DNA of 64,000 nucleotides from Raja brachyura (Eukaryota). The stretch is from assembly GCA_963514005.1 (NCBI GenBank), contig OY740820.1:8494001-8558000 (forward strand). The letters are read 5' to 3'. The first letter of the stretch is position 1. Each line of letters starts with the position of its first letter. Of the stretch, positions 2,459-62,434 are shown piece by piece. The position numbers were made by a program, and so were the translations under genes. The notes under the pieces are model-generated. The model had not been told where the DNA came from. It worked only from the letters and a program-made list of their open reading frames with translations, and made no database searches.

Positions 2459-5400
2459 GCATGTACAATTCCTGTTGGTCAATTAATTTCATGGAAACAA
2501 TATATTTAATGTTATATTTCTTAAAAGGCACAGAGAAAAGCATTTGAACAGCATTTGATTGATTTGAGCTTTATTAAGGGACTGTTTTACATCTCTTCTC
2601 AATTTTTTGTAAATGCAGAATTGGCCACAAAGGTCTGACAATACTCTCCCTATCACATACATAGTTAATGGAAGATGGTTTAAAGAACAGCAACAGTAAC
2701 TTGTTATTTGGACAGCAGGTTCGCTTGGGCAGCTTACACCCCAGCAGTCTGAATATTTAACTTCTCTAACTTCATGTAACCCTTGCTTTCCCTCTCTCTC
2801 CTTCCCCGCCCCCTTCTCCGTTCTCCGATTAGTCCGACTGTCCCTGATAACATTTTATCTCAGTTTGCTTTGTTGTTAACGTCTCCGAGCTAACAATGTT
2901 CTACTCTACATTTTCCTTGAGCTTCACCCCTTTTGATGTCTCGTTCTCACACCTTACACTTCCTTATCGCTGTACCTCCCCCTCCCCTGACTCTCAGTCT
3001 GAAGAAGGGTCTCAACCCGAACGGTCACCCATTCCTTCTCTCCAGAGATGGCGCTTGTCCTGCAGAGGTACTCCAGCATTTCGTGTCTATCTTCGTAATA
3101 AACCTCTCTCAGGATAGAGAAATACCCTTGCTGTTCATGCATGATATTCTGCAAAATGACACAGTAATTGAACGATGTGTTACGGGTTTCTGAAATGACT
3201 GATTTTGGATAACCGTTTACATCCAGGAAGTGACACTATAAGACTAAAGCATGGATATATTCAGACATTTGACGAAACCGTGCATCATTGCACCCAAAGT
3301 GTGCATTGGGAAGCCATTGAAGTCATGGCTATTGACAAATCTCACAGTATGGAAATAAGATTATGGCCCACTGAACACACATTGACTGTAATGTTCTCTG
3401 TAAGGCCCTGTTGTGACTAGCACAATGAATACACGTCCGCCATCTTGTAAGTACGATTTAATCTGAACGACCAACGGAAAATTATCGAAGGTGACCTGAC
3501 CTCAGTCACGAGGCACAGGCACATTTGCCAGCTTCAGCGTTTGGCCTCTAGGGGCTCTGGCATTTATATTACATATACATTCAGCACCCATTTACACTAT
3601 TCCTGTTTTTATTCTCTTTGCATTCCCACCAACCATCCTTTGATATCCCCTCACCAACATACTGGGGGAGTTTACAGTGGCTAACTAACCTTGGAGATGT
3701 GGGGGGAAACTGGAGCTCATAGGGAGGACATGCAAACTCCATATCGAGAGCATCCAAGGTCACAGTTGAACCCTGGATGTAAGGGGCTGTGAGCCAGCTG
3801 TTCCTCTGTTCTGCACTAAATTATGGTCATAGTGAGATACACAGCAGAAACGGGCTCCTTGGCCCACCAAGTCTACACTCAAACACACATTTACACTGAT
3901 CCTACACCAGTATAATGTTATTTTAGTCTCCCCACATTCTCATCAGCTCCCCCCAGGTTCTCCACTCACACGAAGGGCAATTTTCAGCAACCAATGCACT
4001 CACCAACCCTGCGCGTCCTTAGACTGTGGGAGGAAACTGGAGCACACAGTTCCCAGGGAGACTCCACACACCTGCAAACTCCACACACCTTGGCCTCCAG
4101 TTTAGTTTAGTTTAGAGATATAGCCCTTCGGCCCACCGAGTCTGCGCCGACCAGCGATCCCTGCACATTAACATTTTTTTACACACACTGGGGACAATTT
4201 ACAATTTTACCAAAGCCAATTAACCTATAAACCTGAATGTCTTTTGAAGTGCGGGAGGAAACCGGAGCACCCAGAGAAAGCCCACGCATCTAGTAGCCAC
4301 TGTGAGGCAGTAGTTCCACTGGATGTACCATCTGCCATCAGTGCTCTTTATCTACCAGATATGTCATTCCTCTTTCCCTTCTTCATTTGTTTTTGACTTT
4401 CCTAAGTTCAACACCTTTCTTCCGTCATGCTCTCTTTAATTCTTTCTGTATTACGTTTCTGCTTTTGATTTCAATTTCACTCCCGACTGTTCACTAGGAG
4501 ATCCTGTGAATCAGCTCACGCAACTGACTGGGTGAATCCAGGCAGGCTGGAATAGAATAGAATCAGACAGTTGTTGAAGGATTGTGATGGCTCACATTCA
4601 CTGAAGGCCTTGTCATTTATTCTCTTGCCCTGTCACATTCTGTTCCATTCGCCCCCTATGCACAAGAAATTTCAGATCACAACTGCATTCCGAGTATATG
4701 TTATATTCCTCACAATTCACGTGCATTTCCCCCTAGAAATCCACCACTCTTGTTCCTTGAACAACCCATTAATGGCAACTGCCTCTTTCGTGAGTCTAGT
4801 TAAGATAGTCAAAATCTTGTAAGCTGCCTTCCCTACTTGTACCCAAGCTTCACTGAAGGTCCTTAAACCATGTCAACCGTCAGAACGTTAAAGATCTTTT
4901 GACCCCAATTAGTGGTGGATTTACTCCCCATCTTGATGTCAAAATATTGGGTTAAATATAATCAGCGTTGAAGGATTTGTACTGAATCTGTATAGTAATG
5001 CCTTGCAAGTTCTGTCACACTGAACCAGGTGTGGATACTGAGGACCAGGGCACTTAGCAATGAGGCTTGAAGAGGGAGAACGGAAATACATTATTTTCGC
5101 CATCTTTTCCCCATCTTAGTCATAGAGTGATACAGTGTGGAAACAGGCCCAACTTGCCCACACAGGCCAACATGTCCCAGTTACACTAGTACCTCCTGCC
5201 AGCATTTGGTCCACATCCCTCCAAACCTGTCCTATCCATATCTAACTTTTTTAAACGTTGGGATAGTCCCAGCCTCAAGTACCTCCTGAGGCAGCTTGTT
5301 CCATACACCCACCACCCTTTGTGTAAAAAGAGTTACCGCTCAGATTCCTATTAAATCTTTTCTGGACTGATTGCCAAATGATAAATGATAAATGCTCAAT

Positions 5401-8400
5401 TTGTTGTGGCTTAATATGTCAGTGACATATTAAGTCACAACAAATTGAGCATGCAGACCTATGTTCAAAGAGGCATTTAAGGATTGTCAATAAAAGGTGG
5501 CTTTGCCAACAATTCCTGATCCCAGAAATTAATTAAAAGATTGAAAATTATAGATATTTTCAATATATTTTAAATAACATTTATCAATTATCTTCAAGAA
5601 CATTTTTCAATATTTTGCCTTGTGATGCAAACAACAACTAAATTTTTATTAGTGATCAAAACTCCTCATCTCGTGCATCAGAAATGACATATTAATTTAG
5701 TCATAATATTTTGCCCTAATATCTACTGCGCTGCATATCAGATTGTAAATGATAGTAAATAAAGGATATGAGGTTGGTGAGAATTTGGATTAAGCTTCCT
5801 TGGAATTCTATTCTGAAAGTTATTTATGGAGGGGTTGGTAAAATGCATCTTTCTTTTCACAAACAGATTCAGCTCAGCGTCTCCACCAGTAGCTGGTCTA
5901 ATGGTTTTTCATTAGACACTGTGGGAAGTTATGGATGTGTGAAGTGTCCTGCAAAGAATAAGGAATATCTGGTGAGTGTTCAGAGTCACATTGCAGTTTG
6001 AATTAATTTAGATTGCAGGTTCTGCATGAGTGTACGGTTAAAATAGATTTGCAGTGTCAATACCAAGTTATTATAATAGTTTGTATTTCTCCATTTTTCG
6101 CTTGATTGATTTGTTGTAAAGACTCCGTGCACTGTTTAGCTGCATCATGGAGCAAGGGACTTGTACAACACAATGTAGGCCCTTCAGCCCAGCCCCCCCA
6201 TGCCCCGACCAAAGGGATCAACTAAACTAGTGCCGTTTGCCTGCCATCTAAACCTTTCCCTCCCATGTACCTGTCCAAATGTCTTTAAAATGCTGTAATT
6301 ATCCTTACCTCGAACACTGGCAAGGCATTCCATATACCCGCCATCCTCTGTGAACAAACATTTGTTTTAGATCCCCATTAAATTTATCCCCCTCTCACCT
6401 TAACTCGTTGCTTTCTAGTTGACTGCACTGCCCTGTGGGAAACAACGACTGACCATTCAGCTTCAGCCCCTCATGATTTTGTAAACCTCTAAGTTCCCCC
6501 ATCAGCATCCTTCACTCCAGGAAAAACAGGCCCAGTCTCTCCAGCCTCTCCTTGTAACTCAGAACATTCAGTCCCAGTAGCATCCGTGTAAATCTTTTGT
6601 GCATCCTTTCCAGTTTAGTTGCAACTTTCCACGAGGATTGCAACTTAAACTGCACACATGTCCAGGTGTGCTCTCACCTTTACTCAGTGCCATGCACTAC
6701 CCTCACTACTCTTGCTCCTCCTCAACTTCTCTGTACTACAACACTTACCAAGGCAACTAACTGTAGGTTTTGTCCTGGTTCAATGATCCAAAAAGCTTCA
6801 CTTTGAACTCGGTTTGGTTTCCCAGTTGATTTTGATCCTGTTGACAACCTTCCTCATCAGTGACACCCACAAACTTACACCTTTGTATCCAGTAAACTAA
6901 TATAGTTGCTAATCAACAGGCAACTCCTGTGGTACACCACTGGTCACAGGCATCCAATTCCTGAATATCACCCTCTACCTCCAATCACTGCTAATTGCTT
7001 ATCTTATTGGATACTTGCTTTGAATCCTATGTAGTCTAACCTTCTAGACCAGACTACCATGAAGGACCTTGTCAAAGACCTTGGTCAAGCCACTAGTACA
7101 GAAAAGACACAGTCATTGAGTCTTACAGCATAGAAACAGGCCCTTTGGCCCCTTGCCCACACCGACTAACATGTCCCATCTACACTTGTCCCACCTGCCT
7201 ACATTTGGCACATGTCCATCTAAACCTCGTCCTATCCATGTTCCTGTCTAAATATTTGTTAAACATTGCGATAATCCCTGCCTTAACGACCTCTTCCGGC
7301 AGCTTGTTCCATTGTGTGGAATAGTTACCACTCAGGTTCCTATTAAATCTCTCCCCCCTCACTTTAGACCTATGTCCTCTGGTTCTTGATTCCCCTACTT
7401 TGGGCAAGAGATTCCGTGCATCTACCTGATCTATTCCTCTCATGTTTTTGTACACCTCTACAAGATACAGCAAGTTAGGCAGCATCTCTGGAGGACTTGG
7501 ACAGGTGACGTTTTGGAGTCCGGACTCGAAACATCACCTATCCATGTTCTCCAGAGATGCTGCCTGACCCACTGAGTTACTCCAGCACTAATGGGTGGAG
7601 TTATTCCAGGACTGTTAATATCATAAACCTGCATCTGCAGTTCCATGATTCTTCACGTACAGAATACTTCTAGCTACATGTTCCCTGTGAAGAATATGCT
7701 GCAAATGTTTCCCTTTTCAGGCTGAGTGTGTTGCTGCTTCTTGGTGACACTTGAAGTACTTGGGTTTTGTATTATTATACTGTACATGGCCTTAACGTAC
7801 ATGAGATCCTAGAGTTCTGACATATTGGAAATCTGAATTATCCAGTTAGATTTCATGTTTGGGAAGAGTAATTCATTCCGTAGTCACTCCTTGATAATGT
7901 AAGATATATAAACTTGACTCCGTATTAACTCTTTCTCTAAATCGCAGGTTGGAGTAGCCATTAAAGTGAGCAGTTTCAACATGACAAAAGTTGTCACCTT
8001 AACTCCATTCTACACTTTGGTCAATAAATCTTCCTACGAGCTGGAGGTTGGAGAAGAGCAATCCAGTAACTTGGCAAAAAGTGGGAAATGGATTTATATT
8101 TCGTCAGCTGAGGTACAGTATGGGATTTCAGTTTTCAAGTCTGATTGTGCCAGATGTTTTAACAATGCAATCTCCTGTATTAACAAAATCCCAAGCACAC
8201 TTCAATACAAGCGATATCCAGGACACTGTAGCGGTAAAGCATGTCAAAGACAATCTGTCCATACTTTTCCCTATTCCTATCTGATATATATCTGTGTAGA
8301 ATTCTTTTATGACATATTTTCCAAACATTTAACTTTAACGGGATATTTAATCTCGATCAGTGTAGTTTAGTTTATTGTCACAGGCACTGAAAAGCTTTTT

Positions 8401-11400
8401 GTTGCGTGCTATCCCGTCAGTGAAAAGATTATACATGATTACAATCGAGCCGTCCACATCAGGCACGTGCCGTGAGTAATTACTCAGGGTAGGCACTCTT
8501 TCGGATAAAAATAAAAGACCGCGCATGCGCAGATTGTTCTCGCCGTAAAAATAAAAACAGTAACAAGTCAATTTGCCCAAGGCTTCCTCGTCTCCTTTAT
8601 TCTTAATTACTGAAGGGGGAGGGGGAGGGGGGGTGAAGGGTGATTGCAGGTGGAGAGATGGTGGAAAAACGGGAGCATACAGGGAAAAGTTGAATCAGTT
8701 GTCATCTCATTAAATGACAACAAGGGACCAATTGGGGGGGGACAGTTCCTTTCACAGTGTATGGGGAGTCTGCGCCAGGGGTAAAGTTTCGGGGAGAGCA
8801 GGACTGTTGAGAATGAGGGGGTCGGGGATAATGCCAGTAACTCACTCACTTACCGCTGCTGCGGCGCTCCAGGCGTGGAGCCACCACATTGTAGCCGGGG
8901 ATAGAAGCAGCTCGGGTAGCTGCAAGCGGCCACTGGGACCCGACAGTCAAACTGTCCGCCACTTCAGCGCCTTCTGCCGGCCCGCTCACCTCTGTCAGTG
9001 CTCTCTGTCTGAACAACTCTCACCTGCCGCTCACTCATGTCAGCGGCTTCCTGCAAATCCTTAAGTTCCCACAGCCATGTAACCTCAATCGCGCTGTCGG
9101 AATTTAAGGATTTGCGGGACATGAGCGAGCGGCAGGAGTGAGGTTTTGCACGCCTCCGTGCAAGGCGCGTTGCAAGTGGCATTATCCCGATCCCCTCCTT
9201 CACAACATTCGTGCCCTCCCCGCAACTTTACCCCGGGCCAGACTCCCCAAATGCTATGAAAGGAACTCTCCCCCCACCCCCACACCCCGGGGAGTACGGA
9301 ATTTAAAAACATAAACACAAAATGTACTTACCACATTATCGGTACATGAGCTCCATTCTTCTCTCCCTGTTTCCTAAGATACACTTGAAATATTGCCAAT
9401 CCATTTTTGAAAACCCCGCCAAGAAACTAGCGTTGCGCATGCGCAGTAGGATGCTGCCCCTGTGCAGTGCTGCAAAGGCAGAATTTCAGCTGCCTTCAGC
9501 CCCGCTTGAAATTGGCGCTTGAAGCAGCGCTGACGGCACGTGGGCTGCACAGAGCTTCAAGGGTTACAAGCGCTGCGGATGAAAGGCACGGAGAATCATG
9601 CCTACCTAAGAGATCGATCTCTTACATAGGCATAATTCTCCCATGCCTTTATTATTTATATTTAGTTATTACTATGTTATAATTTTAGTCAGGGTAGGCA
9701 GTGCCTGCCTTGCCTAGCCTGACGGCACGTGCCTGGTCCACATGTACAGATACAAGATAAAGGGAATAACATTTAGTGCAAGGTAAAGTCTAATATAGTC
9801 TGATTAAGGATAGTCAGCGGGTCTCCATTGAGGTAGATGGTAGGTCAGGAGCATTCTCTAGTTGGTGTTAGGATGGTTAAGGTACAGGTTTGGATACAAA
9901 TGCCCAGCCTAGAGATTGCATAAATATTATTCAATTCTAACTGGACTTGCCCAAATGCAACCTGTAGGAGACTTGTTGCAATTGGCTTCAAGCTGCCATC
10001 ATATGTCCCGAATGAAGAACTAAAATGGATATTTCTCATGTCAGTTCAAACTTTTACACTGCTTTACGTTATAAATGTCTGGATTATACAAGGATACAAT
10101 GGCAAATCATGACAAGCTGTTCCCAGGTTAAAATCACCCAGCTCATGCATACCCAGCTACATGTCCGAGCACCCTCATCTTATTCAACTCAAACGCCTGG
10201 CGGATGTGCATCCATATTTCAAAGAATGTCAGAACTACTCTCTCTCTCACCATTTTTAATAATTGATCTTTCCTGTCAGGCTTGTGCTTTTGATGCCATT
10301 CATTGCAATACTGTGGCGGTATAGTAATGTTGAATTATGTCTGTGTACTCTCTGACAAAGACAAAATCGTCTTATAAATGTCTGTTAAAACAGTAACTGT
10401 TCAATACCGTGGGATGGGTTGTGCATGGGTGGACAGTATATTCTTTGGTGTGCAGGGAAATTCTAGGAATTGGAAGCTTAAGAACAATACTTTTGTTCTC
10501 TGTGTTAGGTATTGTGTAAAGTTTCCAACAAGTTGGTACTCTTTAGTTGCATTTTCAGAGTCTGGTACAGACCTGCAGTATTAGCATATGAAATGTCGAC
10601 CATTTGGCCCCTTCAGCCTGTTCTGACATTTGCTAAGATCAAAGTTTGTTGACCTCAACTTTACTTTTCTCGACTAAACCCTATCCTCTGTCAATAGTCA
10701 ATAGTCAGATTTATTCGTCACATACACGTTAAAGTGCAGTGAAATGAACTTGCCAGCAGCGGTAGAATAAAAAAGAATACACAATAAAAATGTAACACAA
10801 ACATCCACATGAGTGGCATGGGTGGGGGATCAATTCGTGAAATTTGAAAATTTTGAAAAATGTATATAGACTGTATGGAGACATTTGTATAGCCTCCGAA
10901 AATGTTGGATGGTTTTTTTTTTCGCATGGTTGATGTATTGTATATATTTATTACTCGAATAAAGTCTATTTTGAAATTTTTAAAAAAAAATTCATCACTG
11001 TGGTGGAAGGCACAAAGTACAGTCAGTCCTCCTCCATTTTCCCCCATGGTCGGGACCACAAACCTCCGCAGTCGCCGCTGCGGATGGCCAGATGTGCAGG
11101 CAAGGTAAATCCCGAATCGGTGCGTCCCTACTGGAGACCGCGGCTTCAAGATGATGTAGGCCGCAAGCTGGATAACATTATTTCATTATCCAAACAATTT
11201 TCAATCTCTTCATAAAATGCACCGCAATGACTCAATCTACACAGCCTCTTGGGTGGAGACATCCAAAAAATTGCTTCCCACTCTAAACATCTTTCCACAT
11301 CTTATTTTCTGAATGTGTATTTCAATACGATTGTTTCTTATTCTTCTAGATTCTAAGACTGTAGATATTATAAGTCCAGTCTGCTTATTCTTTTCCACTG

Positions 11401-31028: not shown

Positions 31029-31069
<41 letters not shown>

Positions 31070-55000: not shown

Positions 55001-58000
55001 GGAAATAAAAATCAGTCAAGAAATATTAAACAAAAGAGGTGGAAGTTTAAGGAGAGACAGTAATAAGAGAACTCAGCGGGACAGGCAGCATCTCTGGAGA
55101 GAAGGAATGGGTGACATTTCAGGTTGAGACCCGTCTTCAGACTAATTAGGGATAAGGAAAACGAGAGATATAGACGGTGATGTAGAGAGATGAACAACAA
55201 TATAACCATAACAATTACAGCACGGAAACAGGCAATCTCTGCCCTTCTAGTCCGTGCCGAACACCTAGTCCCATCTACCTGCACTCAGACCATACCCCTC
55301 CATTCCTTTCCCGTCCATATACCTATCCAATTTATTTTTAAATGATAAAATCGAACCTGCCTCCACCACTTCCACTGGAAGCTCATTCCACGCAGCTACC
55401 ACTCTCTGAGTAAAGAAGTTCCCCCTCATGTTACCCCTAAATTTTTGTCCCTTAATTCTCAAATCCTGTCCTCTTGTTTGAATCTTCCCTACTCTCAGTG
55501 GAAAAAGCTTATCGACGTCAACTCTGTCTATCCCTCTCATCATTTTAAAGACCTCTATCAAGTCCCCCCTTAACCTTCTGCGCTCCAAAGAATAAAGACC
55601 TAACTTGTTCAACCTTTCTCTGTAACTTAGGTGCTGAAACCCAGGCCGCATTCTCGTAAATCTCCTCTGTACTCTCTCTATTTTGTTGACATCTTTCCTA
55701 TAATTAGGAGACCAAAATTGTACACCATACTCCAGAATTGGCCTCACCAATGCCTTGTATAATTTTAACATTGCATCCTAACTTTTATACTCAATGAATG
55801 AAAGATATGCAAAAAACGGATCAGCTGTATCCGTCGTTCAAGATGATGACTCTTATACATCGGCGAGACCAAACGCAGACTGAGCAATCGTTTCGCTCAG
55901 CCTGCGTGAACCAACCAGATCTCCCGGTTGCCGGAAACTTTAATTCTCCTTCCCATTCCTACACAGATCTTTCTGTCCTCTGTCTCCTCCATTGTCAGAG
56001 TGAGGCTAAACGCATATTGGAGGAACAACATCTCATATTTTGCTAGGGCAGCTTACAGCCCGGTGGTATGAATATTGGTTTCTCTCACTTCAGGTAGCCC
56101 CGACATTCCCTCTCTCTCTATCCCTTTCGCACCCAAGTCACACTAGTTTCTCGTTTTCATCCTATGAACAGCTTACAATGGGTTACACAAAAAGCTGGAG
56201 AAACTCAGCGGGTGCAGCAGCATCTAAGGAGCGAAGGAGATAGGCGACGTTTCAGGTCGAGACCCTTCTTCAGACGACCCGAAACGTCGCCTATCTCCTT
56301 CGCTCCTTAGATGCTGCTGCACCCGCTGAGTTTCTCCAGCTTTTTGTGTAACCCTCGATTCTCCAGCATCTGCAGTTCCTTCTTTAACAGCTTACAATGG
56401 CCTGTTTCCATCATCATCGTTACTTTTTTGCATATCATTAATTAATTGTTCTTTATCTCTCCACATCTCCGTCTTTATCTCTTGCTTTCCTTATCCCTAA
56501 CCAGTCCGAAGAAGGGTCTCAACCCGAAACGTCACCCAGTCCTCCTCTCCAGGGATGCTGCCTGTCCAGCTGAGTTACTCCAGCATTTTGTGTCTAACTT
56601 CGGTTTAAACCACCATCTGCAGTTCCGTCTTATACTGTAATAAGAGTGACTGGTCTCATCCATGAAGGGTTTTAAACTGCAATTTAAAGGACGAAAGATG
56701 ATTTTTTTTTTTATCATTGAGCCCAAAGCGTCAATCACAGAGACCACTGGAATAAATGGACTGTTGCTTTCAGGTTTCAGCTGGATCTTAGATTTATCTT
56801 TCTTTGGGTGAGATAAGTGTGAGATTCACAATTAGGGGGGAAAGTGGAAATGTCTTGCTTCTGAATGGACTTCCCATTCATGTCACCCAATCTGCTAGGT
56901 GTCTGATAAAGTTTTTGTTTTTATTTCAGATTTTTGCAGTTGCTTTATTTTTTATCTTCTGTAAATGTAGAGTAAGGACCAGTGAATGTTGGAGTATTAA
57001 AATCGGAAGGAACCAATAGCATGGATAAGGATTTGAGGAGAATGGGAGCCAGTTGAGGATGAGACGGTGGTGGGGCTGTAGTTAAGATTCAAGAGCCTGG
57101 TTATCAATGAGAAGATGCTATTCTTGAGCCTGGAGGCAATAGCTCTCAAACTCTTTTACCTTCATCTCAATGGTAACTGAGAGCGTGGCCAGGCTTGCGT
57201 GTTTAGTTTATTGTTGCCGTGCGTGCCAAGGTACAGTGAAAAGCTTTTGTTGCGTATTATCCTGTCAAAGAGAATATTATACATGATTACTGTTAAACCA
57301 TCCACAGTATATAGATCAGCGATAAAGGATACAGCATTTAGTCAAGTCAAGTCAAAAGAGTTTATTGTCATGTGTCCCTAACAGGACAATGAAAATCTTT
57401 CTTTGCATAGCACAACGGAACATAGAAGGCATTGACTACAATTCTATACACAAATACACCCATGAATAAATTAATAAAGTGCAAATAGCAGATGGAGGGA
57501 TATTAATGTTCAGAGTTCCGAGCCAAGTTTAATAGCCTGATGGCTGTGGGGAAGTAGCTATTCCTAAACCGGGTTGTTGCAGTCTTCAGGCTCCTGTACC
57601 TTCTACCCGAAGGTAGCAGGTAAATGAGTGCGTGGCCAGGGTGGTGTGGGTCCTTGATGATGCTGCCAGCCTTTTTGAGGCAGCGACTGTGATAAATAAT
57701 AGTGCAAAATAAAGTCTGAATAAAGATAGTTAAAAGGTCTCCAATGAGATATTTGGGAGATCAGGACCACACTCATGTTGGTGAGAGGACATCGTACTCA
57801 ATAGATAATATGATAAACAAACAAAAAAGATGTCTAATGAATAAAAAAACCCAACATAGTTCAAAACTGCACTACAGTATTTAAGTATTTGCTGTTACCA
57901 TTTTCAAAGAAATAAAAGTGAGTTTCTTGGGTTCCAGGCTTGCCTTCTTCGAAACTAAATGTCAGTTCTACAAGAGAGACCAGTTGATGTTGGCAGCAGG

Positions 58001-61000
58001 GAGACATTATGGAGAACAAGTAAGTGCTTTCTCTCTCCAATTGTCCTGCAGTTTACTTCAGCTCTGAGAATGATCACTTAGCTGATGGATAAATGGCCTT
58101 CCTGATGCTTTCCTCTCATGCCTGTTGTGAGTCAATGCTCTTGGTTAACTTTAGTTAACTTTAATCACTAACCAAACCCTCTCCCACTTCCTCACAGTTC
58201 CTCAAGCAAATGTACGTGCTTGTTTTGGGGCTGGATGTTCTTGGAAACCCGTTTGGCCTCATCAGAGGTCTTTCTGAAGGAGTTGAAGCATTCTTTTATG
58301 AGCCTTTCCAGGTAAGGCAGTGAAAATGCTATCCATTATTTTGAACGTTTCTCCATGTTTTAATGCTCATAACATTGGCGACTGTGATCATTCCAGGGAG
58401 CGGTTCAGGGACCAGAGGAATTTGCTGAGGGCTTTGTGATCGGAGTGAGGAGCTTGCTGGGGCACACGGTCGGTAGGTACCAGCTTTCTATTGACTCTGT
58501 CTTTGGTTTAGATGATGACTATGTCCATTATTCACCAACACATTGATCTCTCCCTGCAGCCTAAAATTACGATTTTCCATACAATTCCATATATTCCATA
58601 TGATATTCCATACAATTAACAGCCCTGCCAATCTTCGTGTTATTCACAGTTACCGATCTCATATCTCTGATCTACATCCAGCTCATTGACATAAATAGAC
58701 ACTAAAGCAGGACAGGCAGCATCTCTGGAGAGAAGGAATGAGTCTGAAGAAGGGGCTTGACCCGAAACGTCACCCATTCCTTCTCTCCTGAGTTACTCCA
58801 ACACTTTATATCTTTAAATTGTTAACTCTCATTAAAGAGCTCCTCATTTACTTAACATATGAGTAGCATGACCACAGATATGCTGTCTGTCCCGCTGAGT
58901 TACTCCAGCATTTCGTGCCTATCTTCGGTGTAAACCAGCTTCTGCACTTCCTTCCTACACTATAAAGTCCATATTTTTCGGATAGTTTCAGAATCGGTCA
59001 TTCACTGGATTTGAAACTTGTGTACAGCCCCAACACGGATGCAGAATACAAATGATCTTATCTACAGGTGGTGCAGCTGGTGTGGTGTCGAGAATCACTG
59101 GCTCAGTTGGCAAAGGTTTGGCTGCTATCACAATGGATAAAGAGTATCAACAGAAGCGGAGGGAAGAAATGAACCGCCAACCCAAAGACTTTGGAGACAG
59201 TTTGGCCAAAGGGGGAAAAGGCCTGATACGGGTAGGTCAAGTTCCTATTATTAAAAGAAAACTACCTGAAGGGGGAAACTTTATGGGCTGTTAAGTACAA
59301 ACATTAGGAACAGCAGTGGAGATGGTCTTTGATCTAGTTGTGGCATTGGGTGAAACTCTGAATCCTTGCACCATCTCCTGCCTGTCCCCAGTTCACTGTG
59401 GTTAACTTCTCTGCTTCTCCAGTCTAAAGTTAATAATCAACGCAGCGTAAATTGAAATGTCTACATCTTTAGACCATGGCTGCTGGTTCTCAACTTCACA
59501 GCCACCTCTAAATAGCATTATTAGAAATGGATCAAAAAATACAGGCTACCTTGAGTATTTTATTGAGAAAGACAAGACAATAAATAATATGCATGATGCG
59601 GTTAATGTTTGAACAAATTCTTTGTAAATGTGGGACCAGATTCGGCAGAACAAAATGAATGACCCAGGAACAAAAGAAGGGGCGGATACTGATCTTTGGG
59701 ATAGAAATACTAGTTCTATCTTCCATAGAGCAGTCGAAGGAAAATAAGTCATAGACACTGTAAGAAAATGTAAAAGCAAATCCTCTACTGATTGGAATGT
59801 TATCGATATGATTATAATACAAAACGTTATTGAGGAAATTGCAGAACCATTAACTCATATCTGTAACGTGTCTTTTCAATCCGGTAAATTTCCGAACAAA
59901 ATTAAAATAGCAAAAGTCATACCATTATATAAAAATGGGGATAGACACCATTTCACAAATTCCAGGCCAGTTTCATTACTCTCCCAATTCTCCCCACCAG
60001 GTCTGCGCCGACCAGCAATCCCCGCACACTAAAACTATCCTACACACTAGGGACAATTTACAATCCTTAACAAAGCCAATTCATCTACAAACCTGTACGT
60101 CTTTGGAGTGTGGAAGGAAGCCAGAGCGCCCGGGGAATCGTGGTGATGGGGAGAATGTACATACTACGTACAGACAGCACCTATAGTCAGGATCGAACCA
60201 GGGTCTCTGGTGCTTTAATGCAGCAACTCTACCGCTGAGCCACCGTGCTAGATGGTTACTGCATCTACAAAACTGTAGGGATATTGTAACAAGTCGACAC
60301 GTGAAGCCTGTATGGTCGTAAGTAGTCGCCCAAAGAGTCGTACCTTTTTCTGGTCACTGCTGGATTTTCAACATTTTGAAAATTTTCGGCGACCTGCTGC
60401 GACTGACGGGTGCGAGCAAGTCGCCGGAAAAAATTGCAGAAGTGGGACAGGCCCTTAAGAAATCTATTCGTATGGAGAATTGCATTATTAAAAACGTGTC
60501 AACAGAGAAAATGGGAGATTTAGGGATCATAAAGTTTCAGGTTTGCAATAATAACTTTTTTTTTCCTGCAACATTTAAGGTATTTTTAATAGGTATAAAT
60601 GTATTTTAGTTGTATTAAAATACTAGACACTATGTCACTATAGTATTGTTGCTCAAGTGTCAAGAGAAACAATTGCTGGCCAATTTCCATAGCCTACTGT
60701 GGTGAAACTATCAGCTGTGTTCTTAACAGGCAATGGAGTCTATTGGAACAGTATTTGTCCCCAGAGCAGCTTTCCTTTCTGCTGTTGTGTTTTAAGTAAC
60801 GTTTAAGTGGTGCTCTGGTTCCCCATAGAAATCATGTTGTAACTATCTACAATGCGATCAATTCATTCCTGTAGCATGGTGACCAGAACTGCACCCAGTA
60901 CTCCAGCTGTGGTCTCAGGTTTTATCACAGCTGCAGCACAACCTCCTTATTTTTATATTCTATGTATCCCATGCTAGTGTTCCATATGGTTTCCCAATGC

Positions 61001-62434
61001 TGTTATCTAGCTGCGTTGCCACTTTTAAGGATAAATGGACGTGCTCCAATGTCCCACTGTTACTACTTTCTAAGATCCTGTCGTACATGGTGTTATTCAC
61101 CTTATTCATGCTCTCCAAATGCTTGACCTCTCGATTATCTGGATTAAACTCCATCTGCCATTTCACCAACACATTGATCTCTCCCTGCAGCCTAAAATGA
61201 CGATATTCCATACAATTAACAACCCAGCCAATCTTCGTGTTATTCACTGTTACAGATCACGCATTCTGATCTACATCCAGGTCATTGACGTAAATAGACA
61301 CAAAAGCAGGTCAAGCAGCATCACTGGAGAGAAGGAACGGGTCTGAAGAAGGGTCTCGACCCAAAACGTCACCCATTGAGTTTGAAGAAGGGTCTTGATC
61401 CGAAACGTCACCCATTCGTTCTCTCTCGAGTTACTCCAGCCCTTTATGTCTTTAAATTGTTGACTCTCGTTAAAGAGCTCCTCATTTACTTAATTGTTTG
61501 CGTAGCATTACCACAGAGATGCTGTCTGTCCCGCTGAGTTATGCCAGCATTTTGTGTCTATCTTTGGTTTAAGCCAGCATCTTCAGTTCCTTCCTACACG
61601 AGAAGGAATGGATGACATTTCGGGTCGAGAACCTTCTTCAGTCTCTATGGGTGATGTTTCGGGTCGAGACCGTTCTTTAGACTGGAGTCTGAAGAACGGT
61701 CGCGACCCAAAGCATCAACCATTCCTTCTCTCCTGAGTACCTCCTGCACTGTATGTCTATAAACCAGCATCTGCAGTTCCTTCCTACACAGGTCATTCAC
61801 GTATTTTACACAGAGCAAGAGTCCCACCAACGATCCTTGTGGGACACAGCGAGTCACAAAAACAGCCTCTCTAATTATCCTCTAACTCCTATTGATAAGT
61901 CAGCTTTAGATCCAGTTTAATAACTTGCCTGGATCCCTTGTGCCCTAACTTTTTCAACTAGTCTCCCATGTGGAACTTTGTCAAAGATCTCACTAAAGTC
62001 CACATAACGTATATCTACAGCCCTGCCCTCACCAATACCTCCTCAAAGAATTCAATCAAATTGATCAGATAGTCTCTGCCTTTGACAAAACAGTCTGAAG
62101 AACAGTCTCGACCCGATATGCCATCTATTCCTTTTCTCCAGAGATGCTGCCTGACCAGCTGAGTTACTCCAGCATTTTGTGTCAAGCCATCTCGGCTTAG
62201 TCCCTGCCTTTCCAAATGATCATAAATCCTCTCCCTCAGATTTTTTATCCAGTGTCTTCCCTCTTGTCATGACACTTTATACTTTTTTTTTCAATGCTCA
62301 AAGAAGCTAAAATGACCCAGTTCCGTACTGGCTCAATTGGCGGATTTCACACAACAAAACAATAATTTATAAACATTTGTTCTTTCAGGGTGTATTGGGA
62401 GGATTTACAGGAATCATCACGAAGCCAGTCGAAG
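2075..62434 (+). CDS. VPS13C: VPS13C (bridge-like lipid transfer protein), internal part: 19 coding exons; gene extends beyond both window ends
   Basis: 19 exons with AG acceptors, GT donors (one GC) and compatible phases give 852 codons with no stop. The peptide follows vertebrate VPS13C as I recall it (e.g. [91 protein letters not shown]). Confidence 0.95.
2712..3095 (+). mobile_element. Penelope-like element 3' tail
   Basis: ttgggcagcttacaccccagc (end of GIY-YIG ORF), pyrimidine tract, hammerhead remnant at about 2999-3028; another PLE fragment at about 291-420. Confidence 0.8.
5392..5452. repeat. 61-bp near-perfect palindrome
   Basis: 30-bp arms, 1-nt centre, one G.T mismatch. Confidence 0.95.
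5867..5971 (+). CDS. VPS13C: VPS13C exon B ([11 protein letters not shown]...KEYL)
   Basis: ttcacaaacag acceptor, CTG|gtgagt donor, 105 nt, phase 0/0. Confidence 0.95.
6150..7470 (-). mobile_element. Two adjacent CR1 3' fragments
   Basis: ORF 7180-7485 ([10 protein letters not shown]...SRTRGH) and CR1 3' UTR motifs. Confidence 0.8.
7948..8112 (+). CDS. VPS13C: VPS13C exon C ([12 protein letters not shown]...YISSAE)
   Basis: atcgcag acceptor, GAG|gtacag donor, 165 nt. Confidence 0.93.
8460..9735. mobile_element. Non-autonomous hAT-type DNA transposon
   Basis: 14-bp perfect TIRs CAGGCACGTGCCGT (8460-8473 / 9722-9735); 8-bp TSD GTCCACAT (8452-8459 / 9736-9743); no transposase; inserted into a Rex1/Babar 3' tail. 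Confidence 0.9.
11415..11940 (-). mobile_element. CR1 3' fragment containing a + strand L2-type 3' end (about 11540-11630)
   Basis: ORF 11707-11904 is CR1 C-terminus; the insert tgtaaagcactttg...aataaaagtgacttgacttg is flanked by a TATCCA repeat (11534-11539 / 11631-11636). Confidence 0.78.
12140..12285. mobile_element. Harbinger-type MITE, right end only
   Basis: GTGGGACATGCCCT+TAA at 12272-12288, preceded by ACGC-rich repeats. Confidence 0.5.
12903..16583 (+). mobile_element. DIRS1-type tyrosine-recombinase retrotransposon, degenerate, with the RT core deleted
   Basis: Gag-like ORF pieces 13079-14309; RT N-terminus ([11 protein letters not shown]...[12 protein letters not shown]); RNase H ([11 protein letters not shown]...ATYLSGKLN); YR pieces ([40 protein letters not shown]). 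The ICR at 16262-16361 is complementary to the left end (12903-12925, 23/23) and the right end (16504-16580, 75/77). Both termini carry TTT. Confidence 0.92.
16702..16830 (+). CDS. VPS13C: VPS13C exon D ([10 protein letters not shown]...LKLDYV)
   Basis: ttttgttgcag acceptor with CTAAC branch-like motifs at 16670-16680, GTG|gtaagt donor, 129 nt; not in the ORF track. Confidence 0.93.
18008..18330 (-). mobile_element. V-SINE (HE1-like)
   Basis: Full copy on the minus strand; further minus copies at about 4100-4330, 24481-24806, 27415-27690, 36098-36366, 50196-50779 (split by CR1) and 59995-60248. Confidence 0.85.
19235..19530. mobile_element. PIF/Harbinger-type MITE
   Basis: TIRs AGGGCTTGTCCCAC / GTGGGACAGGCCCT, flanks TAA and TTA, internal (G)CTACGG repeats; interrupts a V-SINE. 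Confidence 0.75.
20270..20625. mobile_element. PIF/Harbinger-type MITE, largely palindromic
   Basis: 27-bp perfect TIR AGGGCCTGTCCCACTGTACGAAGTAAT, TAA TSD on both sides (20267-20269, 20626-20628). Confidence 0.85.
21345..21478 (+). CDS. VPS13C: VPS13C exon E ([10 protein letters not shown]...FRFKQ)
   Basis: ttttgtcag acceptor, AG|gtctgt donor, 134 nt, ends in phase 2. Confidence 0.92.
21510..22140 (+). mobile_element. Penelope-like element 3' part: GIY-YIG endonuclease remnant plus tail
   Basis: [35 protein letters not shown]...VAQHFN...GMN is a PLE-type GIY-YIG with Cys/His motif; followed by a pyrimidine tract and a degenerate hammerhead at about 22055. Confidence 0.88.
22952..23384. mobile_element. 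Harbinger-type MITE, right end only, carrying a Penelope-tail insertion
   Basis: GTGGGACAGCCCCT at 23371-23384; internal GTCGAAG/GTCGAGG repeats; insertion at 23159-23247. Confidence 0.6.
25590..26400 (-). mobile_element. Old CR1 ORF2 fragment
   Basis: [10 protein letters not shown]...[11 protein letters not shown] linker/RT start on the minus strand. Confidence 0.78.
26521..26548 (+). ncRNA. Minimal hammerhead ribozyme core
   Basis: CTGAAGA a GGGT ctca ACCT GAAAC GTC. Confidence 0.65.
26620..27010 (-). mobile_element. Rex1/Babar LINE RT C-terminal fragment
   Basis: [10 protein letters not shown]...ITAWLGN...RCLRK...PGHSFFSL; related 3' ends at about 8366-9880, 45440-45760 (LPSGKQY...DSFF.AVIRQLN), 52150-52290 and 57080-57790. 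Confidence 0.75.
27082..27208 (+). CDS. VPS13C: VPS13C exon F (SETQEE...[15 protein letters not shown]...LFK)
   Basis: ctcttccgcag acceptor, AAG|gtctgt donor, 127 nt; frame differs from the ORF-track call here. Confidence 0.92.
28940..29505 (-). mobile_element. CR1 3' fragment
   Basis: CR1 3' UTR and RT C-terminus; similar pieces at about 22145-22330, 31495-31745, 33455-33780, 38070-38530 and 48905-49285. Confidence 0.8.
29810..30045 (+). CDS. VPS13C: VPS13C exon G (DQFGQF...AYVGIT)
   Basis: actttacag acceptor, AG|gttagt donor, 236 nt. Confidence 0.95.
30773..30800 (+). ncRNA. Minimal type I hammerhead ribozyme core (Penelope-associated)
   Basis: CTGAAGA + stem II GGGT-ctcg-ACCC + GAAAC + GTC cleavage triplet; all core nucleotides intact. 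Confidence 0.75.
31031..31067. repeat. (GT)18 microsatellite
   Basis: Read directly from the sequence. Confidence 0.97.
32648..32675 (+). ncRNA. Minimal hammerhead ribozyme core
   Basis: CTGAAGA a GGGT cttg ACCC GAAAC GTC inside a fold-back unit at about 32535-32740. Confidence 0.65.
34348..34464 (+). ncRNA. Candidate box C/D snoRNA-like element (copy 1)
   Basis: C box GTGATGA 34363-34369, CTGA at 34386 and 34450, terminal stem; intronic and sense to the host gene; no target identified. Confidence 0.35.
35444..35767 (+). mobile_element. tRNA-derived V-SINE (HE1-like)
   Basis: A box GGTGCAGCGG, B box GGTTCGATCC, V-domain core TTCTCCCCGTG..CGTGGGTTT...TTTCCTCCCACA, CR1-like tail and (CTAAA)n end; another copy at 35016-35327. 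Confidence 0.85.
37965..38056 (+). ncRNA. Candidate box C/D snoRNA-like element (copy 2, internally shorter)
   Basis: C box 37980-37986, D box 38042-38045, terminal stem retained with compensating changes. Confidence 0.28.
39532..39861. mobile_element. PIF/Harbinger-type MITE
   Basis: About 45-bp imperfect TIR (CCCTGTCCCACGGTACGAGTTCATTCCAAGA...), TAA-like flanks; exact ends ambiguous by 1 nt. Confidence 0.75.
40271..40576 (+). mobile_element. V-SINE (HE1-like)
   Basis: Same architecture; an inverted copy lies nearby at 40832-41140. Confidence 0.85.
41195..41339 (+). CDS. VPS13C: VPS13C exon H ([16 protein letters not shown]...SNLE), WWE-like domain
   Basis: ctaacttcag acceptor, GAG|gtaaca donor, 145 nt; not in the ORF track. 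Confidence 0.93.
43187..43321 (+). CDS. VPS13C: VPS13C exon I (ANFHRME...LRAQLYWLQ)
   Basis: ttttcactttag acceptor, CAG|gtaacg donor, 135 nt. Confidence 0.9.
44788..44869 (+). CDS. VPS13C: VPS13C exon J ([11 protein letters not shown]...SIALDS)
   Basis: gtgacag acceptor, G|gtgagc donor, 82 nt. Confidence 0.93.
45087..45156 (+). CDS. VPS13C: VPS13C exon K ([23 protein letters not shown])
   Basis: ctctttag acceptor, AA|gtgagt donor, 70 nt. Confidence 0.93.
45860..46780 (+). mobile_element. CR1 3' fragments
   Basis: [20 protein letters not shown]...SRTRG...FFTQR. Confidence 0.82.
47387..47676 (+). mobile_element. V-SINE (HE1-like)
   Basis: A/B boxes, V domain, (CTAAA)n tail. Confidence 0.85.
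47862..47970 (+). CDS. VPS13C: VPS13C exon L ([18 protein letters not shown]...TQK)
   Basis: ttccctttcag acceptor, AAG|gtaggt donor, 109 nt. Confidence 0.94.
49410..49830 (-). mobile_element. Penelope-like element 3' part
   Basis: Minus-strand [50 protein letters not shown] plus the family tail. Confidence 0.85.
49994..50107 (+). CDS. VPS13C: VPS13C exon M (TSLIDRD...[11 protein letters not shown])
   Basis: ttcttttgtag acceptor, AAG|gtaaag donor, 114 nt. Confidence 0.94.
51298..51870 (-). mobile_element. Penelope-like element 3' part, degenerate
   Basis: Same GIY-YIG C-terminus and tail on the minus strand. Confidence 0.7.
52373..52512 (+). CDS. VPS13C: VPS13C exon N (LHLSLSL...[13 protein letters not shown])
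   Basis: ttctaacag acceptor, AA|gtaagt donor, 140 nt. Confidence 0.94.
52575..54717 (+). mobile_element. CR1 LINE, 5'-truncated, young; RT ORF 52584-54323 with a frameshifted C-terminus 54320-54625
   Basis: [51 protein letters not shown] motifs; 3' end with (TTTCTATG)n microsatellite tail. Confidence 0.95.
54727..54752. repeat. G26 homopolymer
   Basis: Read directly from the sequence; 10 nt after the CR1 3' end. Confidence 0.95.
55200..55795 (-). mobile_element. CR1 LINE 3' fragment nested in a Penelope tail
   Basis: ORF 55265-55771 ([15 protein letters not shown]...FFTQRVV); the Penelope tail resumes at about 55793. Confidence 0.9.
55855..56630 (+). mobile_element. Penelope-like element 3' part with a nested hairpin unit
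   Basis: YIGETKR..., [17 protein letters not shown]...EQHLIF; tail with hammerhead remnant at 56506; insertion at about 56182-56385. Confidence 0.85.
56246..56273 (-). ncRNA. Minimal hammerhead ribozyme core
   Basis: Reverse complement reads CTGAAGA a GGGT ctcg ACCT GAAAC GTC; a similar minus-strand core lies at 37734-37761. Confidence 0.65.
57938..58019 (+). CDS. VPS13C: VPS13C exon O (LAFFETK...RHYGEQ)
   Basis: gttccag acceptor, CAA|gtaagt donor, 82 nt. Confidence 0.92.
58198..58311 (+). CDS. VPS13C: VPS13C exon P ([20 protein letters not shown]...YEPFQ)
   Basis: cttcctcacag acceptor, CAG|gtaagg donor, 114 nt. Confidence 0.95.
58397..58472 (+). CDS. VPS13C: VPS13C exon Q ([12 protein letters not shown]...GHTV)
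   Basis: cattccag acceptor after an 85-nt intron, G|gtaggt donor, 76 nt. Confidence 0.95.
58727..58787 (+). ncRNA. Hammerhead core (58744-58771) closed by a long stem I
   Basis: GGAGAGAAGGAATGAGT-CTGAAGA...GAAACGTC-ACCCATTCCTTCTCTCC; the flanks pair with one mismatch. Confidence 0.65.
59068..59231 (+). CDS. VPS13C: VPS13C exon R ([11 protein letters not shown]...GKGLIR)
   Basis: tctacag acceptor, CGG|gtaggt donor, 164 nt. Confidence 0.95.
59540..59992 (+). mobile_element. AT-rich LINE RT fragment of the L2/Crack group
   Basis: [50 protein letters not shown]; distinct from the CR1 copies. Confidence 0.7.
60290..60455. mobile_element. Harbinger-type MITE, right end only
   Basis: GTGGGACAGGCCCT+TAA at 60442-60458, CpG-rich interior. 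Confidence 0.6.
60870..62250 (-). mobile_element. Old CR1 RT fragment interrupted by several Penelope tails
   Basis: ORFs 60960-61247 (WQMEFNPD), 61645-61857 (VPQGSLVG) and 62015-62215 (NLIEFFEEV). Confidence 0.75.
62389..62434 (+). CDS. VPS13C: VPS13C exon S ([15 protein letters not shown])
   Basis: ttctttcag acceptor, G|gtatgt donor, 46 nt. Confidence 0.93.

Follow-up and report, generated by a model that had tools for sequence, protein, structure and literature searches.

The window, by which is meant the whole 64-kb stretch of skate DNA analysed here, holds the host gene VPS13C, recognised through approximately 19 coding exon matches on the + strand. Between these coding exons lie 30 loci of a short repeat, all of them intronic, as the initial annotation had placed them. 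The repeat is a known kind of hammerhead-bearing end of a Penelope-like element (PLE), and most of what it displays is known already; the less expected features concern its insertion geometry and the position of its 5′ edge. Among eight short ORFs at 10.7-16.2 kb no Pfam match was found. In two runs of other organisms, contigs join VPS13C exons over the intron which here holds the unit at 58706-58959; as the insertion may be absent there, this is not counted as evidence.

A profile HMM trained on 12 copies from the window identified 48 segments of the repeat and a longer model identified 50, with very short fragments escaping the HMM. The 12-copy model gave no match in three shuffled windows and none in the reversed window. 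When merged, the segments form the 30 loci (Table 1), in agreement with the approximately 30 motifs originally counted. The span from CUGAAGA to GUC is covered by 31 segments at 24 of the 30 loci. A scan of the window with hammerhead models, as had been proposed, had two outcomes: a relaxed minimal-hammerhead descriptor without stem I matched six times (mean 0.07 and maximum 1 in 100 shuffles), and Rfam covariance models returned no hammerhead family at E<=1 over the whole window. Two Rfam matches to microRNA hairpins were set aside as chance. The exact 28-base core pattern had no match in metagenome contigs.

Table 1. Repeat loci, PLE remnants and host gene in the window (C3 positions refer to the hammerhead core)
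Positions	Strand	Feature
247..423	+	PLE linker zinc finger and start of GIY-YIG, stop present, repeat not attached
2042..62436	+	VPS13C host gene
2993..3105	+	Repeat copy, C3 at 2999, A15.1 changed; ~250 nt pyrimidine-rich UTR upstream (type B)
7468..7647	.	Head-to-head pair centred on stem II, without CUGAAGA, right-arm tail
17004..17175	.	Head-to-head pair, right-arm tail, 9-bp target duplication, changed core
21016..21261	.	Head-to-head pair, right-arm tail, changed core
21512..22151	+	5′-truncated PLE: linker zinc finger, GIY-YIG with CCHH, UTR, repeat with C3 at 22055; frame break near 21620
23144..23255	-	Solo copy, subfamily C, G5 deleted
23510..23715	.	Head-to-head pair, left-arm tail, U4 changed
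24266..24355	-	Older GIY-YIG C-terminal remnant, then pyrimidine-rich UTR, repeat not attached
26514..26612	+	Solo sense copy, 11 core bases intact, G10.1-U11.1, without stem I
27917..28122	.	Head-to-head pair, right-arm tail, U16.1 changed
28836..28918	-	Related copy, older and more divergent
29500..29623	+	Copy truncated within stem II, tail present
30571..30869	.	Head-to-head pair, subfamily C, 62-nt spacer, 14-bp target duplication; sense core 30773 fully intact, full pairing to the left arm predicted
32535..32743	.	Head-to-head pair, sense core 32648 fully intact without stem I, the left arm predicted to pair with its cleavage site
37649..37830	.	Head-to-head pair, antisense core with C3 at 37761, 3-bp stem II
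41519..41720	-	Copy preceded by ~106 nt of type A UTR; palindrome lost, core bases kept
42412..42571	+	Copy preceded by 60 nt of type A UTR; stem II broken, core bases kept
43796..44026	.	Head-to-head pair, left-arm tail, changed core
44262..44397	-	Solo copy beginning 3 bases ahead of C3 and reaching the tail end, changed core
44576..44643	-	Divergent fragment, weak
44886..45041	.	Head-to-head pair occupying most of a short intron, GAAA-GUC deleted
48868..48910	-	Tail-only fragment, weak
49279..49834	-	GIY-YIG C-terminal remnant, UTR and repeat (49410-49834; C3 at 49480, G12 changed), then tandem short copy (49279-49378)
51305..51860	-	Older GIY-YIG remnant, UTR and repeat with tail, core start deleted
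52001..52032	-	Tail-only fragment, weak
55070..55201	-	Copy with 61 nt upstream UTR (type A), 3′ side cut
55820..56634	+	5′-truncated PLE: broken GIY-YIG, UTR, repeat with C3 at 56506 (U4 changed), tail
56175..56387	.	Head-to-head pair, subfamily C, 15-bp target duplication, inside the UTR of the 55820..56634 PLE
58706..58959	.	Composite unit, sense core 58744 (3-bp stem II, no stem III partner); left arm begins at the predicted cleavage site and gives this core a long artificial stem I
61286..61788	.	Composite of seven segments, some of it a local duplicate of 58706-58959; sense cores in tandem at 61343 (G12 changed) and 61382 (C3 changed); exact 9-base target duplication
62086..62188	+	Solo copy beginning 4 bases ahead of C3, without tail, changed core

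The Penelope origin put forward at the outset is upheld by the continuity of the repeat with GIY-YIG remnants whose relatives carry a reverse transcriptase (RT) followed by GIY-YIG. The three remnants reported initially are present at 21512-21953 (+), 49673-49834 (-) and 55820-56094 (+), and three further remnants were found at 247-423 (+), 24266-24355 (-) and 51637-51860 (-); four remnants continue into the repeat. The Pfam GIY-YIG match is weak (E=0.066), and the nearest proteins are from skates, with 73-78% identity, one skate protein being at 75%. The CCHH signature consists of two Cys between the GIY and YIG positions and two His downstream. A shark relative encodes an RT, then a linker CX4CxxC, then GIY-YIG. 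The CX2-5CxxC linker zinc finger is intact in skate and shark homologues; its last Cys is changed in the 21512 copy and the 247-423 copy has one extra residue. This finger is common to Neptune and Nematis, and the vertebrates sampled in a published survey contained Neptune and Poseidon only. The element probably belongs to the Neptune clade. Neither a remnant of a PLE reverse transcriptase nor a full-length element was found in the window, and an autonomous partner of the short copies is presumed. Within the repeat no reading frame conserved across subfamilies was apparent by eye, and a search for proteins starting with the translated repeat returned one short unnamed match.

The majority sequence of the repeat fits the minimal type I hammerhead of PLEs in all but its 2-bp stem I. 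It possesses the CUGANGA, GAAA and UH core, an extra base after A9 and a G10.1-C11.1 pair closing helix II. A palindromic ACGU occupies positions 15.2-16.2, with no stable helix III, and the original identification of a minimal type I motif in which this palindrome replaces stem III is supported by the majority sequence. All 11 core bases are kept in 12 of the 31 core-spanning segments. The core bases together with a 4-bp stem II with G-C are found in 3/31, and the core, the 4-bp stem II with G10.1-C11.1 and the ACGT palindrome in 2/31, namely 30773 and 32648. Both CpG positions of the palindrome decay in the copies. Six cores had been named as intact, and all are present with their 11 core bases, having C3 at 26521, 30773, 32648 and 58744 (+) and at 37761 and 56273 (-); the positions 37734 and 56246 first given for the minus cores are their low ends (C17). 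Only 30773 and 32648 are intact in full, as G-U replaces G10.1-C11.1 in 26521 and 56273, and 58744 and 37761 have three of the four stem II pairs.

Stem I measures 2 bp at most where native upstream sequence is present, short of the approximately 4-5 bp expected of helix I. Compensatory two-sided changes occur in none of the six pairs of stems I and II, the copies stemming from near-identical masters, and the sole change in stem I (U-A to U-G, three rows) keeps the pairing. Consensus folding of 23 copies gave only one 4-bp helix, lying downstream, with no covariation, and folds of four single copies had z values from -1.9 to +0.7; a structured 3′ domain is therefore not claimed. In three copies the double-hammerhead fold is predicted to lie 7-16 kcal/mol above the alternatives. 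Tandem Repeats Finder detected no retrozyme-like array of consecutive units with complete hammerheads in the window, and the tandem cores 61343 and 61382 have one core change each.

The majority sequence of subfamily C differs from that of the main group at 16 positions in columns 10-101, with none in the 28 hammerhead columns (p=0.0015), a comparison which covers five segments of one subfamily. All core bases, the extra base after A9, the G10.1-C11.1 pair and the ACGU palindrome are kept in both. For decay among copies, seven of the 50 segments were dropped (three local duplicates, four divergent or tail-only) and the five of subfamily C were kept apart. With polymorphic columns removed, core substitutions amount to 16/274, compared with 146/1701 elsewhere (p=0.15). 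The expectation of a core more conserved than the rest of the repeat is borne out between subfamilies but, on this count, not in the decay of the copies. When the five subfamily-polymorphic columns are kept, the counts become 16/274 and 205/1857 and the core is the more conserved (p=0.008), so a weak post-insertion constraint on the core may exist.

The arrangement of the copies and the clustering of their 5′ ends at the core edge are features absent from the initial annotation. Head-to-head inverted pairs occur at 13 of the 30 loci and tail-to-tail pairs at none (p=0.0002). A tail of approximately 37 nt is present on exactly one arm in 13/13 of these pairs, and 3′ ends fall at two places, near model columns 101 and 138. 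Four head-to-head loci have exact target duplications, of 9, 14, 15 and 9 bases; candidates shorter than 9 bases were discarded because matches of 4-8 bases occur near almost every locus. In a related species, 63 contigs join opposite arms which both end approximately 2 bases before C3 (the joint 56275-61341). The combination of head-to-head pairs, one-arm tail and target duplications matches the published insertion pattern of PLEs. Inverted 5′-truncated copies, partial tandems and a 30-40 bp tail at one end are described in the available part of PMC8557442. The same part, which includes Neptune, also describes variable target duplication, insertion into an older copy, a C-terminal GIY-YIG with CCHH and the linker zinc finger, all as seen here. 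Unlike that description, the arms in the window are only 30-140 nt and their 5′ ends are piled at the hammerhead edge; no microsatellite targeting was evident in an informal look.

The 5′ ends were placed by hand for 46 of the 50 segments, leaving out 28836, 44576, 48868 and 52001. Of these, 22 fall at 0 to -7 from C3, where 0.88 would be expected from the downstream rate; without the duplicated unit at 61.3-61.8 kb the figures are 17/39 and 0.78. None of the eight longer copies ends between -8 and -58. Whether they belong to subfamily C or to the main group, short copies have the same 5′ edge, and the seven short copies that do not fold back have no common upstream sequence. Hammerhead cleavage was rejected as the origin of the edge, because the cleavage site is 28 bases downstream of C3 and no more than two of the 46 ends, one event duplicated, are found there. 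As the 22 ends lie 0-7 bases before CUGAAGA and only these two at the cleavage site, the clustering suggests run-off copies from the 5′ end of an RNA and not a separate non-autonomous family. The edge is the new detail in this sequence, and it likely marks the start of the element's own RNA. More tentatively, and with rather less than even confidence, the thousands of short copies may be ‘strong-stop’ cDNAs recording the 5′ end of a Penelope transcript that has its start at an initiator-like CAGT, 3-4 bases ahead of the core. Such a start would limit stem I to no more than 3-4 bp.

It is considered probable that the 30 intronic loci are decaying, 5′-truncated pLTR insertions of a PLE, probably of the Neptune clade, with a hammerhead that likely served the element RNA and likely spares the VPS13C pre-mRNA. 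The repeat is the 3′ end of copies carrying linker, GIY-YIG and UTR. By analogy with the anole element, the PLE protein would nick both DNA strands 9-15 bases apart, and reverse transcription would begin at two internal sites approximately 100 and 137 nt downstream of the hammerhead. This step fits the window, as there are two 3′ ends, one per arm, in 13/13 head-to-head pairs; two internal start sites have been demonstrated in vitro for the anole PLE (PMC11167929). Most cDNAs would be synthesised on the pLTR at the transcript's 5′ end and would run off their template 3-4 bases ahead of CUGAAGA, after which each may join a second cDNA, snap back or join host DNA. Copies of 100-140 nt with a common 5′ edge would be the consequence, and the few long copies would arise from priming in the downstream pLTR. 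Selection may have maintained the hammerhead in transposing masters, where it would act as a two-strand ribozyme with protein assistance and a stem I of 2 bp. Cleaved RNA would rarely be the template: the two ends of 46 at the cleavage site are in line with the unprocessed RNA template of the anole element (PMC11167929). After insertion, the core appears to decay at approximately the rate of the rest.

The abundance of short copies was first ascribed to a high-copy non-autonomous ribozyme-bearing family, that is, to one or more 130-nt masters which start at the hammerhead and use PLE protein in trans. Most loci do lack coding sequence, GIY-YIG being attached at 4/30, and the 5′ edge is sharp. 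In four runs of relatives, contig depth in repeat-only bins is 9-35 times that in the endonuclease bin, although depth is not equivalent to copy number, and putative non-autonomous PLE derivatives are already known. A separate family is nonetheless doubtful and rated as improbable. More than one subfamily has the same 5′ edge, so each master would need to have originated at the same point. Subfamilies, downstream sequence, tail and head-to-head geometry are common to short copies and to those with endonuclease, and dispersed and opposite-strand minimal hammerheads have been published as truncated PLEs. Somewhat less improbable, yet still unlikely, is that the edge reflects a block to reverse transcription instead of an RNA start, caused by a 3′ splice acceptor (bound factors or branch) or by a stem II hairpin in the cDNA. 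Both upstream types, A and B, finish with a pyrimidine tract and a CAG standing one base ahead of C3, the intron of Drosophila virilis Penelope is published as ending at the 5′ end of helix I, and two pairs (7468-7647, 56275) have junctions in stem II. Against a splice acceptor, many short copies keep the AG with no common spliced-on exon, and no more than 5-8 bases separate the upstream branch-point-like motifs from the AG, which is short by general acceptor rules. Upstream of the edge, the loose ends of contigs in RNA-like runs weakly resemble the genomic pyrimidine tract (low agreement, 0.40-0.42) and not one exon. The designation as RNA-like is a presumption, made for five runs of small share.

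The motif could also be a vestige, with stem I mostly lost and the sequence kept, if at all, for promoter function or protein binding. The 2-bp stem I, the lack of covariation and the unfavoured dimer fold agree with this, and anole hammerhead mutants insert normally in vitro (PMC11167929). Were the RNA to start 3 bases ahead of the core, a promoter role alone could conserve these 30 bases. The reading is thought unlikely, in view of the retention of every core feature in both subfamilies compared and of pairing after the sole stem I change; a 2-bp helix I is also reported for D. virilis Penelope. Far less credible than any of these is an action of some sense copies on VPS13C pre-mRNA, in which they would pair mutually or with PLE transcripts, with PLE protein helping, and tune splicing or level. 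All 11 core bases are kept by 6/17 sense segments, the 58744 copy has a long fold-back stem I and an open core in the predicted fold, and the repeat occurs abundantly in the RNA-like runs from relatives. However, the only two fully intact sense cores, 30773 and 32648, have stem I of 1 and 0 bp and are predicted to sit inside fold-back hairpins, and the sole tandem sense pair is changed in each unit. Sense copies are neither depleted nor in excess, with 17 sense to 14 antisense core-spanning segments (p=0.72), 6/14 antisense segments keeping the core and core substitutions of 13/169 (sense) and 10/136 (antisense). Metazoan PLE hammerheads have been published as inactive monomers and weak dimers, 8/9 Xenopus dimers were inactive, and the anole PLE hammerhead needs PLE protein (PMC11167929). 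The suggestion that sense copies could cut the pre-mRNA is accordingly not borne out: as 2/31 segments are fully intact, both lacking an adequate stem I and predicted to lie in hairpins, cutting of the host transcript by the copies is unlikely. The fold-back units may, as predicted, form long double-stranded RNA in pre-mRNAs, a likelier host effect than cleavage.

Besides the PLE insertion pattern, three known systems are close to the repeat. The minimal hammerheads (min-HHR) of PLEs, in the available part of PMC4209133, have the same core, an extra base between 9 and 10.1, the G10.1-C11.1 pair and a palindrome without loop 3, and are known from Xena, Poseidon and Neptune elements of fishes. 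They also occur as thousands of dispersed single motifs per genome, with close opposite-strand pairs, as here. Their helix I is given there as 4-5 bp in Schistosoma and 2 bp in a D. virilis variant, the latter equal to the skate length; helix II measures 4-5 bp. No cartilaginous-fish family is named in that part of the source. The Anolis carolinensis Poseidon PAc (PMC11167929) is similar in having two internal RT starts that bound the tail downstream of the hammerhead, in the nicking and extension of both DNA strands and in the use of uncleaved RNA as main template. PAc is a Penelope/Poseidon element without the linker zinc finger, and so differs in clade; its ORF start overlaps the hammerhead, whereas no conserved ORF start was found in the skate repeat. 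Non-LTR retrozymes (PMC7229834; Li, Clavereau and Pollet 2026 preprint) are likewise non-coding, hammerhead-bearing and PLE-related with many solo monomers, and have been reported for the one chondrichthyan sampled. They form head-to-tail arrays with a complete hammerhead per unit, unlike the solo and head-to-head copies here, whose sole tandem pair is doubly mutated.

A hammerhead-bearing PLE family is in itself ordinary, as thousands of such motifs exist in fish, amphibian and invertebrate genomes. For annotation, the abundant short hairpin-like intron repeat of skates is to be treated as the end of a PLE and not as a MITE or a host ribozyme. The sharp 5′ edge and the rule of one tail per pair are traces left in vivo by the PLE integration cycle, which is poorly understood, and they allow a cheap genome-scale test of the RNA start and of the copying of cleaved RNA. 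If the strong-stop reading is true, the ribozyme would be transcribed first and its cleavage would clip a capped leader of approximately 31 nt off the element RNA. Each head-to-head pair would then be a fossil of two cDNAs, with one protein dimer priming on both nicked strands. The PLE hammerhead would act as a 5′-end processing switch, and skate genomes would provide a very large natural record of priming and run-off.

VPS13C lies on the + strand of the window, with about 19 coding exon matches between 2042 and 62436 when three vertebrate VPS13C proteins are used as tblastn queries. Homologues of these exons carry the name VPS13C, and Pfam VPS13_VAB was also matched. A profile built from 12 window copies of the ~130-nt intronic repeat found 48 segments (single matches) in the window, and none in three shuffled windows or in the reversed window. 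A longer profile model gave 50 segments, merging into 30 loci, and the motif from CUGAAGA to GUC is spanned by 31 segments in 24 loci. The core coordinates of the initial annotation are correct, its minus-strand figures being the low ends of cores in which C3, the first base of CUGAAGA, lies at 37761 and 56273. The remaining repeats are tabulated.

Other repeats in the window
Feature	Positions	Strand	Evidence	Assignment
LINE remnants	52581-54630, 62879-63817, 45801-46307 (fragments)	+	580-aa ORF matching Pfam RVT_1, E=1e-31	Presumably CR1-type, by C-terminal motifs
LINE remnant fragment, with others elsewhere	55265-55777	-		
Broken ORFs	13000-16200	+	No Pfam match	Translation presumably resembling DIRS-type RT/RNase H region, by motifs
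Second abundant repeat family	4088, 18008-18326, 24620-24806, 27496, 35021-35630, 36094, 40272-41022, 47383, 50190-50781, 60070-60249		Repeat search	Probably an HE1-type SINE of cartilaginous fishes
Third repeat family	5146-5329, 7145-7466, 11447-11911, 46082-46272, 51161-51948		Repeat search	Probably LINE 3′ ends

The repeat can be regarded with high confidence as the end of a Penelope-like element (PLE) bearing a minimal hammerhead. The family is real, high-copy and of a known kind, and is new only as a family member. Its Penelope origin, as originally proposed, is borne out at four loci where GIY-YIG remnants are linked to the repeat by a pyrimidine-rich UTR (21512-22151, 49410-49834, 51305-51860 and 55820-56634). 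A tblastn search of the window with five homologues found six remnants of linker or GIY-YIG sequence but none of a PLE RT. The host is probably a skate, as the three proteins closest to the GIY-YIG remnant belong to Leucoraja and Rhinoraja (73-78% identity). The endonuclease shows the CCHH arrangement, and before it comes a CX4CxxC linker that skate and shark homologues retain intact; in a shark homologue the RT is followed by GIY-YIG. In the available text of Craig et al. (PMC8557442), linkers of this type are present in Neptune and Nematis and absent from Penelope/Poseidon, and the accessible part of the Li et al. preprint records only Neptune and Poseidon in the vertebrates sampled. The clade is therefore likely to be Neptune, as judged from the linker and published survey. 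Around 21486-21512 the GIY-YIG-bearing remnant begins, in sense, ~25 bases past a VPS13C exon. Since PLE endonuclease sequence is joined to host exons in several skate gene models, annotation often mis-joins or exonises remnants of this kind.

The majority sequence fits the minimal hammerhead identity first suggested for the repeat, though stem I is only 2 bp. It contains all features listed in the available text of Cervera and de la Pena (PMC4209133) for minimal PLE hammerheads: the core, an extra base after A9, G10.1-C11.1 and a palindromic 15.2-16.2. These hammerheads occur in fish Xena, Poseidon and Neptune elements, and coelacanth and Xenopus have 4,000-9,000 motifs per genome, mostly single truncated copies with some close opposite-strand pairs (PMC4209133). 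A relaxed minimal-hammerhead descriptor gave 6 matches in the window vs 0.07 in shuffles; Rfam models did not detect the motif there. Twelve of 31 segments have all 11 core bases and a base at position 17 that allows cleavage (6/17 sense, 6/14 antisense). Three of these also retain stem II at 4 bp with G10.1-C11.1 as its closing pair; two of the three, the sense copies with C3 at 30773 and 32648, have the ACGU palindrome as well. The weak point of the motif is stem I, which is 2 bp in every copy whose native upstream sequence keeps these bases, as in the D. virilis variant (PMC4209133).

Subfamily C, represented by five segments, departs from the main majority sequence in 16/92 columns, with 0 differences in 28 hammerhead columns (p=0.0015). 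Among inserted copies, 16/274 non-CpG core bases are changed vs 146/1701 elsewhere (p=0.15), or vs 205/1857 when five polymorphic columns are kept (p=0.008). At the CpG site G12, 7/31 segments carry a change; two-sided changes in stems I or II were seen in 0/6 pairs. The unvarying hammerhead columns between subfamilies, together with the non-significant difference in core decay among copies, suggest that selection worked on the masters and not on inserted copies.

Meaningful cutting of VPS13C pre-mRNA by sense copies, put forward in the initial annotation, is very probably absent. Stem I of the fully intact sense cores is 1 bp at 30773 and 0 bp at 32648, and both sit in fold-backs in which the whole core and the GUC, respectively, are predicted to be paired. 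As the motif is without stem III, a partner strand is needed, and the dimer is then held by 4+2+2 intermolecular pairs. For three copies its computed energy is -6 to -7 kcal/mol, whereas alternative two-strand folds reach -13 to -22 kcal/mol. In the single tandem sense pair, both units have a core change. Copy 58744 is the most suggestive one: an inverted arm starting at the cleavage site is predicted to give it a long stem I with the core left open, but stem II is 3 pairs long and no stem III partner is present. Motif-spanning segments have no strand bias (17:14 sense:antisense). In the available parts of the literature, minimal PLE hammerheads have nil activity as monomers and low activity as dimers (PMC4209133; review PMC6765202), the anole PLE hammerhead requires the PLE protein (Frangieh et al., PMC11167929) and 8/9 Xenopus dimers are inactive (Li et al. 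preprint).

Head-to-head pairs of arms lie in or form 13/30 loci, and tail-to-tail pairs number 0 at unit level (p=0.0002). Copies have two 3′ end points ~37 bases apart, the extra tail being on exactly one arm in 13/13 pairs. Each pair is one insertion event, since four have exact flanking duplications (9, 14, 15 and 9 bases). One of these four, the pair 56175-56387, is inserted into the UTR of an older PLE copy. An inverted 5′-truncated copy and a one-sided 30-40 bp tail are likewise typical of the PLEs described in the available text of Craig et al. (PMC8557442). Frangieh et al. (PMC11167929, accessible part) report that the anole PLE protein nicks and extends both DNA strands, and that reverse transcription starts at two internal sites bounding the tail.

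Between the two arms of one insertion flanked by a 14-bp target duplication lies a 62-nt spacer (30707-30768), which is not derived from the PLE upstream region and resembles captured DNA of the host or of a LINE end. A composite unit with its left flank is duplicated locally ~2.6 kb apart (58680-58959 and 61270-61599; 91% over 117 nt), the second copy having later gained further arms. A head-to-head unit of ~155 nt takes up most of a ~210-nt VPS13C intron (44869-45076), ~17 bases after the upstream exon, and its predicted long hairpin could affect splicing. Four related-species contigs connect unique flanking sequence with the copies at 55070, 56498, 58875 and 62086, insertions that thus appear older than the species split.

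The copies share a 5′ edge at the hammerhead. Among 46 segments with hand-curated 5′ ends, 22 begin 0-7 bases before C3, none between -8 and -58 and 16 at +1 to +64, while 8 carry at least 60 bases of upstream element. The end rate per base is ~25x higher in the 8-base window (0.88 expected; Poisson p ~1e-23), and 17 ends remain at the edge vs 0.78 expected once the duplicated 61.3-61.8 kb unit is removed. Unknown upstream sequence is not the cause, as most of the edge ends abut the inverted arm and the seven others have nothing common upstream. Related-species contigs (n=63) join two opposite arms, each ending ~2 bases before C3, and loose contig ends at the edge are heterogeneous (agreement 0.33-0.42 vs ~0.6 inside the repeat). 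An A directly precedes C3 in 5/6 ends scored 0, as would be expected if the cDNA stopped at -3/-4 and then folded back on its own sequence. Hammerhead cleavage was rejected as the cause because only 2 ends, from one duplicated event, fall at the cleavage site, 28 bases downstream of C3.

In the preferred reading, the RNA of the element would start at the edge, just before C3, and priming in the 5′ terminal repeat (pLTR) would give short run-off cDNAs. The chance that the short copies are such run-off from the RNA 5′ end is put at about even. The CAGT context at the edge is taken to fit the initiator consensus YYANWYY. In D. virilis the PLE promoter is internal to the pLTR (PMC2377424, available text), and transcription begins 46 bases upstream of a 75-base intron whose end falls at helix I (PMC2377424; PMC4209133); a splice-acceptor block in place of an RNA start is therefore a real rival.

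The short copies would also fit a separate short non-autonomous master, as coding remnants occur at only 4/30 loci, an observation that fits run-off products equally. In relatives' runs, contig depth in repeat-only bins is 9-35x that in the endonuclease bin; this too fits either reading, and depth added up over contigs does not measure copy number. The non-autonomous family of the initial annotation is doubtful: run-off is favoured because the edge is common to subfamilies and the tail and pair geometry are identical. Retrozymes, in the sense of the accessible text of PMC7229834 and the Li et al. preprint, require tandem complete units; none were found here, so the copies are not retrozymes. 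In 47 related-species contigs a tail-less 3′ end is joined to a new copy starting ~2 bases before C3 (joint 56596-61341), and short head-to-tail tandems of ~105 nt, possibly retrozyme-like, may exist elsewhere than in the window.

No prior description of such a 5′ edge was found in the open literature searched, which did not extend to Dfam, Repbase, subscription papers or the Frangieh et al. supplementary figures. The edge is the out-of-the-ordinary feature of an otherwise known kind of element.
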